Shown here piece after piece: positions 8,554-8,608 of a stretch of 11,502 nucleotides of DNA. The notes under the pieces are model-generated. The model was not told the origin of the DNA and made no database searches. It saw nothing but the letters and a program-made list of their open reading frames with translations. The position numbers were made by a program, and so were the translations under genes. The stretch spans positions 1 to 11,502 of the forward strand of contig JBMFHL010000023.1 of the NCBI GenBank assembly GCA_049976845.1. Direction: 5' to 3'. Origin of the DNA: Candidatus Micrarchaeia archaeon (lineage in GTDB: Archaea; Micrarchaeota; Micrarchaeia; Micrarchaeales; CABMGC01). Within the stretch, counting starts at the first letter, position 1, and every line of letters starts with the position of its first letter.

Positions 8554-8608
8554 ATCTAGTGATGATACGAGGTATTTCTGATAAGTGATGAAAAAGAGTC
8601 ATCTGAAA
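8554..8608 (+). ncRNA. Box C/D 2'-O-methylation guide sRNA, directly downstream of tRNA-Gln
   Basis: Box C GTGATGA 8559-8565; 12-nt guide TACGAGGTATTT; box D' CTGA 8578-8581; TAA; box C' GTGATGA 8585-8591; 11-nt guide AAAAGAGTCAT; box D CTGA 8603-8606. Canonical archaeal spacing. Exact ends are inferred. Confidence 0.9.

Follow-up and report, generated by a model that had tools for sequence, protein, structure and literature searches.

Helices 68, 69 and 71 (H68–71) of 23S rRNA are described as hotspots of archaeal 2′-O-methylation, and it has been suggested that double-guide sRNAs with closely spaced targets help the rRNA to fold, as chaperones (Dennis et al. 2015; Breuer et al. 2021; Lui et al. 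2018). Dennis et al. (BMC Genomics 16:632, PMC4644070) list C2186 of 23S rRNA as a predicted C/D target in four of seven archaea (M. maripaludis sR104, S. acidocaldarius sR20, M. kandleri sR47 and I. hospitalis sR201) and G2206 as a predicted target in one of the seven (P. calidifontis sR40). Their alignment equates A2178 with A1912, and its block ending at column 2200 ends at E. coli C1934; the numbering is that of E. coli + 266, so that C2186 is C1920 and G2206 is position 1940. Several of the double guides that they list have both targets inside H69–H71, among them S. acidocaldarius sR20 (U2222/C2186) and P. calidifontis sR40 (U2222/G2206). In bacteria, 23S C1920 is the substrate of TlyA, described as a stand-alone 2′-O-methyltransferase (PMC7317525). 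There is also a described case of a C/D sRNA joined to a tRNA, the RNase Z-processed tRNA-Val–sRNA8 dicistron of Nanoarchaeum equitans (Randau 2012, Genome Biol 13:R63, PMC3491384). Narrow word searches of the literature found no work on C/D sRNAs of Micrarchaeota, or of DPANN archaea beyond Nanoarchaeum.

The window analysed here is the whole 11,502-nt stretch of DNA that constitutes contig C23 of a 731-kb MAG (52 contigs; 42% G+C; 90% complete by a marker figure), and the host is a Micrarchaeota-type DPANN archaeon. Positions 8559–8606 of the window very probably encode a canonical archaeal double-guide box C/D sRNA, in which the conserved and well-supported function predicted from sequence would be 2′-O-methylation of A1940 by the D′ guide, and the D guide would aim at C1920 but is weakened in this copy. 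It resembles the archaeal sRNAs of Dennis et al. in RNP type, in its N+5 logic and in the two target positions themselves. When compared by target positions, however, none of the sRNAs listed in that paper joins 1920 and 1940 in one RNA, as the sRNA in the window does. The species in the same paper carry 7–128 sRNAs, whereas the host genome shows about two, and the base at 1940 is G in crenarchaea but A in the host's congeners. The likeness to TlyA, as that enzyme is described, is one of nucleotide and chemistry: the product in both cases would be Cm1920 in H69, at the subunit interface. TlyA acts as a protein alone, whereas the system in the window is RNA-guided, and the resemblance is convergent, not homologous. 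The sRNA family described below is unannotated and lies within the well-known C/D class, and both target sites are already predicted C/D targets in other archaea, just as tRNA–sRNA dicistrons are known in Nanoarchaeum.

The sRNA lies with a tRNA in a 225-nt gap between minus-strand ORFs at 7686–8426 and 8652–10109. It is encoded on the plus strand and reads GTGATGA-TACGAGGTATTT-CTGA-TAAG-TGATGA-AAAAGAGTCAT-CTGA, a compact archaeal box C/D layout in which the terminal C and D boxes and the internal D′ and C′ boxes of the class are all present. The C box, GTGATGA (8559–8565), follows the RUGAUGA consensus, and all 28 family members in the alignment share its TGATGA core unchanged; the D′ box CTGA (8578–8581), the C′ box TGATGA (8586–8591) and the D box CTGA (8603–8606) are likewise invariant in this 28-member alignment (A1). 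The 12-nt D′ guide TACGAGGTATTT (8566–8577) and the 11-nt D guide AAAAGAGTCAT (8592–8602) are separated by the D′ and C′ boxes and by a 4-nt loop, TAAG (8582–8585), which is variable across relatives. The corresponding spacers, 12 nt from C to D′ and 11 nt from C′ to D, fit the ~12-nt guide spacing of archaeal C/D sRNAs. The original prediction had placed the boxes and guides at these positions, had given the reverse complements of the guides as ATGACTCTTTT (D) and AAATACCTCGT(A) (D′), and had taken T8573 in the D′ guide and G8598 in the D guide as the fifth bases upstream of their boxes; inspection of the sequence agrees with it on each of these points.

A strict C/D pattern matches the 731-kb genome only at 8559–8606, and a looser pattern gives seven matches in the genome versus none in the reversed genome, one of the seven being a convincing second sRNA. 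These counts argue that the architecture is not a chance match. Across the window, no Rfam C/D family reached its gathering score and the tRNA model alone matched, which places the sRNA family outside the curated Rfam models. A terminal stem around the C and D boxes is absent from the window copy, in which the flanks ATCTA and AAC GGA are non-complementary, and 4–5 bp stems occur in some relatives (GCGCC/GGCGC in G031; ATTG/CAAT in G004). Such a stem is often weak or missing in archaeal sRNAs and is not strictly defining. Elsewhere in the window, ARAGORN reports a tRNA-Pro(CGG) at 734–807 (+), directly behind an ORF that ends at 733, with no Rfam tRNA match there at gathering score.

Immediately upstream of the sRNA, on the same strand, is a gene for tRNA-Gln(UUG) at 8481–8553 (Rfam tRNA, 59.3 bits, E = 4.9e-11; ARAGORN, 8480–8554), which has no encoded CCA and ends in the discriminator A8553. 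It differs in one column across five aligned congeners. The tRNA and sRNA are separated only by the 5-nt trailer ATCTA (8554–8558, +), at whose 5′ edge RNase Z would be expected to cut. The original prediction had the sRNA co-produced with a tRNA, and the 5-nt spacing supports this, leaving no room for a separate sRNA promoter. An A/T-rich, TATA-like element, TTTATTAA (8446–8453, +), lies ~30 nt upstream of the tRNA and is a candidate promoter of the tRNA–sRNA unit; in archaeal promoter geometry, the TATA element is centred near −26. The two genes form a putative dicistron, with the sRNA directly behind the tRNA on the same strand and RNase Z encoded in the host (TIGR02651, 316.8 bits versus a cut-off of 292.95). 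Plants reportedly also carry tRNA–snoRNA genes, described by Kruszka and colleagues in 2003.

As in the N. equitans dicistron, to the extent that it is described, the sRNA gene directly follows a tRNA gene of the same strand, and an RNase Z cut would create its 5′ end. The partner differs, being tRNA-Gln(UUG) in the window and tRNA-Val in N. equitans. A further difference from N. equitans is that the tight fusion is derived within the host genus, since five aligned congeners retain a 30–40 nt T-rich spacer (for example, ATCTTTTTATCTTTATTTTG) between tRNA-Gln and the sRNA that is missing in the window. A terminator or a promoter, or the two together, could lie in the spacer of these congeners; without it, the sRNA in the window would have to come from the tRNA transcript. 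The linkage itself extends beyond this one copy: the window and five of six congeners have tRNA-Gln(UUG) upstream on the same strand, with the congeners' tRNA ending 34–44 nt from the C box, and the same tRNA is found upstream in four more relatives among 28 family loci, in G008 and G037, and in 16 of the 75 full-architecture loci among the matches listed in a scan of one genome per species. Because the flanks covered were 300–1500 nt, these linkage counts are lower bounds. The 5-nt spacing also recurs in at least five other genomes (L147, L204, L212, L216 and G008).

The host genome encodes the three proteins of a C/D RNP, fibrillarin (E = 2.4e-77), Nop5 (E = 2.9e-55) and L7Ae (E = 1.1e-25), all above their Pfam cut-offs. 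The number of guide RNAs for these proteins appears to be low. A consensus-box pattern (C, D′ and C′) finds zero or one locus per genome in the host (G000) and in G004, G023, G044 and G051, three of which are single-contig genomes. A 9-mer complementarity search of the host genome against congener rRNA returned 316 raw matches, mostly chance, and a box filter reduced these to 10, versus two in the control. Two of these 10, C4:19650 and C9:2921, were rejected as further guide sRNAs as they have no C′/D′ architecture. The counts fit a very small C/D sRNA repertoire in Micrarchaeota, of perhaps about two. The second C/D sRNA of the host genome lies outside the window at C6:5095-5142 (−) and reads GTGAAGA-AAAGAGTAACTG-CTGA-ATA-TGATGA-AGCCTATATCGG-CTGA, with a terminal stem GTCC/GGAC. 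Its D′ guide has a 9-nt pairing with congener 23S at ~2413 (AGTTACTCT) and its D guide a 12-nt pairing, with one G·U, at ~2478 (CCGATATGGGCT), both in G004 numbering; the relatives G053 and G059 have a similar sRNA.

The host assembly contains no 23S rRNA, so all statements about targets rest on the 23S rRNA of relatives. LSU rRNA matches were found in 37 of 61 related genomes, and the H69–H71 region was extracted from 33 of these. Two congeners, G004 and G006, have a 23S; their H69–H71 sequences are identical (GGGAGUAACUCUGACUCUCUUUAGGUAGCGUAAUACCUCGUCAC) and read ...CTCTGACTCTCTTTAGGTAGCGTAATACCTCGTC... at the target sites. We assigned E. coli numbers by gapless alignment to rrlH, in which C1920 is the C of CUGAC and position 1940, a U in E. 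coli, is the second A of UAAUACC. In the congener 16S and 23S rRNA, the best and only good sites for the sRNA are the H69 3′ strand and the strand just past GGUAGCG. The two guide sites are 9 nt apart and the two methylation sites 20 nt apart, so that both congeners reproduce the pair of sites, the 9-nt gap and the positions 1920 and 1940 that had been predicted; together with the box anatomy, the paired sites support the assignment as a double-guide box C/D sRNA. As an aside, the 16S matches in the same two congeners (G004:C1:167157-169136, L226; G006:C14:1787-3763, L225) span ~1980 nt against a 1478-position model, so that at least one large insertion or intron seems likely in the 16S gene.

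The D′ guide gives the clearer of the two target assignments. Its positions 2–11, counted from the D′ box, pair perfectly with AAUACCUCGU (A1937–U1946) in the 23S of both G004 and G006, which places T8573 opposite the A at E. coli position 1940; the predicted D′ site, with its N+5 at 1940, therefore stands with 10 perfect base pairs. This 10-nt run is unique in congener 16S and 23S rRNA, and 211 of 20000 shuffled guides reach a run of that length. The congeners' own D′ guide, GACGAGGTATTT, has an 11-nt run that is reached by 31 of 20000 shuffled guides. The pairing is further supported by a compensatory change in G034, which has CCUUGUC in its 23S and CAAGG in its guide, whereas everywhere else CCUCGUC goes with CGAGG or with TGAGG, a wobble variant; this is the one compensatory D′ change in the comparison of guides and targets across relatives that had been proposed as a check. 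Variant D′ guides also occur in L123, L133, L160, L111 and L174, but no H69 region was found in any of these five MAGs. The best-supported function of the sRNA, as judged from these pairings, would be the guided 2′-O-methylation of A1940 through the D′ guide.

With the strict pattern, 31 of 61 genomes give a single match each and backwards-pattern controls give none; three of the 31 matches (G013, G053 and G059) are other sRNAs. A sequence model (R1) built from the 28 members of alignment A1 matches 45 of the 61 genomes at E ≤ 0.01, or 44 of 60 when the unpublished genome G050 is set aside. The scan of one genome per species yielded at least 120 loci, of which 75 among the matches listed have the whole C/D architecture, and the first 80 of the loci listed are nearly all from Micrarchaeota. 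Throughout the family, little or no variation is seen in the D′ guide core AGGTA-TT and in the four boxes. With model R1, the family was not detected in 16 of the 61 genomes, which may nevertheless encode fibrillarin-type proteins. Several genomes with no detected member retain the standard target sequence (G023, G035, G042, G044 and G045), which implies that the modification is dispensable or guided otherwise there. In four genomes with a variant D′ target (G048, G052, G038 and G051) and in G023, which has the standard target, the only matches had three mismatches, the same as the control. Outside Micrarchaeota, L152 (from a Desulfurococcaceae archaeon) and L201 are C/D sRNAs whose D′ guide, xGGCAGGTATTT, is related to that of the family but whose D guides are not; these may target the equivalent 23S site in Crenarchaeota.

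The D guide presents a more complicated picture. Against congener 23S it forms 7 bp (U1917–U1923), an A·C mismatch at C1924 and then two A–U pairs, with G8598 opposite C1920. Archaeal guides of this class are expected to have at least ~9–10 bp of complementarity to rRNA or tRNA, the target lying opposite the fifth base upstream of the D or D′ box; with congener 23S as proxy, the D′ guide has 10 bp and the D guide 7 bp, a mismatch and 2 bp. A 7-nt run is not above chance, being reached in 9769 of 20000 shuffles, whereas the congeners' D guide, AAAGAGAGTCGT, has a 10-nt run that 99 of 20000 shuffled guides reach. The window copy is that congener guide minus one G, with a G→A change at position 2. 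The assignment of the D guide to C1920 and H69 therefore draws on its homology to the congener guides, on the adjacency of the site to that of the D′ guide, and on its uniqueness, the H69 site being the sole site in congener 16S and 23S with at most one mismatch over guide positions 2–11. Of the two modifications in the original prediction, the placement on the H69 3′ strand with N+5 at C1920 and the site at 1940 both hold, but the D duplex is weak, which makes Cm1920 less certain than Am1940. C1920 would be the ancestral aim of the D guide in the genus, and is doubtful as the aim of the window copy.

These observations leave considerable room for a single-guide reading, in which the D guide has decayed to an orphan that no longer methylates C1920 and at most holds H69 near the D′ site. 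We regard this as a serious contender, somewhat short of an even chance. It accounts directly for the one-base deletion relative to all six congeners, each of which has the missing G, and for the short, interrupted duplex with congener 23S, whose 7-nt run shuffled guides match about half the time. Orphan guides that arose through a few substitutions have been described in Pyrobaculum (Lui et al. 2018). The D guide is also the variable half of the family. Among the 75 full-architecture loci of the matches listed, a count that leaves out loci L025–L103 and the window copy, only 51 pair with the H69 3′ strand at one mismatch or fewer, and of these 51 (again among the matches listed), 24 have their N+5 at C1920 and 27 at U1921; lineages with the U1921 register carry a ...GAGAGTCT D guide. 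Several other D guides are degenerate or retargeted: that of G025 pairs with the opposite H69 strand (GGGGGUAACU; N+5 = G1910), that of G013 pairs with AGCGUAAUA at 1933–1940, and the guides AAAAAGTCTT (G021, which looks degenerate), AAAATAGTGG and AAAGTTACCCCA also belong here. Against outright decay, the change at position 2 turns a G·U pair into an A–U pair, which looks like partial compensation. Shortened D guides recur in separate lineages (AAAGAGTCGT in G033, AAAGAGTCGG in G046, and AAATAGAGTCAT), which suggests that they are tolerated, and fewer base pairs may suffice in a mesophile than in the thermophile systems studied in vitro. The D spacer ranges from 9 to 13 nt across the family (75 loci among the matches listed).

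The missing G might instead be an assembly or consensus error in the MAG, with the true D guide as in the congeners (AAAGAGAGTC...). This would be easier to accept for a deletion inside a short AG repeat (AAAGAGAG) in a genome of 52 contigs, both of which apply here, but we consider it very unlikely: the window copy differs from its congeners in other ways as well (at T8566 and A8601, in its loop and in having lost the spacer), which fits real divergence, and comparable shortened guides occur in independent lineages.

A different explanation would place the change in the target, such that the host 23S carries C1924U or an equivalent and the D guide is fully complementary through co-change of guide and target. 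The H69 stem could accommodate this, as a G1906·U1924 wobble would preserve it, and an LSU with such a sequence exists somewhere, since a metagenome contig (L232) has ...AACTATGACTCTTTTAAGGTAGCGTAATACCTCGTC... in this region. Nonetheless, the target ATGACTCTTTT that the original prediction had expected in the host rRNA failed to appear in any of the 33 23S regions of relatives (0/33) or in any of 248 genomes of the order (0/248); the relatives' D site reads CTGAC(T/C)CTCTT or a near variant, the base opposite guide position 9, predicted to be T, is C (C1924) in 33 of 33, and the two congeners are identical here. The change in the guide is moreover a deletion, for which a single substitution in the target is not the simplest match. 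L232 itself is a 630-nt, divergent, A/T-rich LSU fragment that carries ATGACTCTTTT beside GCGTAATACCTCGTC and contains the exact complement of both guides (ATGACTCTTTT ... AATACCTCGT). We rejected it as the host rRNA, since it is ~83% identical to Micrarchaeota 23S over only ~100 nt whereas the 23S of members of the sRNA family are 81–89% identical over 630 nt, and it therefore comes from outside the host genus. Taken with these counts, co-change is very unlikely.

That the drifted D guide now targets C32 of tRNA-Lys(CUU), a number read off the anticodon loop by eye, is extremely unlikely. CTGGCTCTTAA in this tRNA is the best D-guide match among the 25 host tRNAs, with 8 consecutive pairs, including one G·U, and N+5 at the C that directly precedes UCUUAA. 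It has two mismatches over positions 2–11, however, which makes it poorer than the site in H69; chance alone should give an 8-bp match in ~1900 nt of tRNA, and the congeners' D guide clearly fits H69.

Our preferred reading thus remains a double-guide sRNA with a conserved D′ function and a weakened D guide, and it suggests the following sequence of events. The promoter of tRNA-Gln(UUG) would drive a joint transcript of tRNA and sRNA, and RNase Z, cutting at the tRNA 3′ end, would free the 5′ end of the sRNA. The sRNA would then assemble with the genome-encoded L7Ae, Nop5 and fibrillarin. If the host 23S is equal to that of the congeners in the target region, as we assume, the D′ guide would pair with 1937–1946 (E. 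coli numbering) and direct 2′-O-methylation of A1940, and the D guide, on the H69 3′ strand at 1917–1926, would methylate C1920, 20 nt upstream of A1940. With one base lost and its duplex reduced, the D guide of this genome may direct that second methylation weakly or not at all, yet still bind near H69.

One possible, if tentative, account of why this sRNA is widely retained in a minimal system of about two C/D sRNAs is that selection preserves Am1940 together with a chaperone role, in which the sRNA binds the 3′ strand of H69 and the neighbouring strand of H70 at once while the 50S subunit assembles, and not a methyl group at a fixed place in H69. This would be in keeping with the alternation between the C1920 and U1921 registers, the slippage of the spacer over 9–13 nt and the retargeting of D guides, set beside a near-invariant D′ guide. 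A chaperone role was also raised in the original prediction; it is not a new inference, having already been put forward by Dennis et al. (2015) for double guides whose targets lie close together.

In summary, an unannotated, order-wide C/D sRNA family is added to Micrarchaeota, a DPANN lineage with tiny genomes, and the pattern and model described here can be used to annotate its gene. The family leaves our understanding of how C/D sRNPs work unchanged; its interest lies in how few guides there are, in the retention of this one sRNA across the order and in the drift of its H69 guide between registers, with A1940 and C1920 as two concrete residues open to testing. The register shift of the D guide among lineages offers a small natural test of whether selection acts on where the methyl group is placed or on binding as such. 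Our work suggests that RNA-guided methylation at the H69–H71 subunit interface is kept even in a 0.7-Mb genome.
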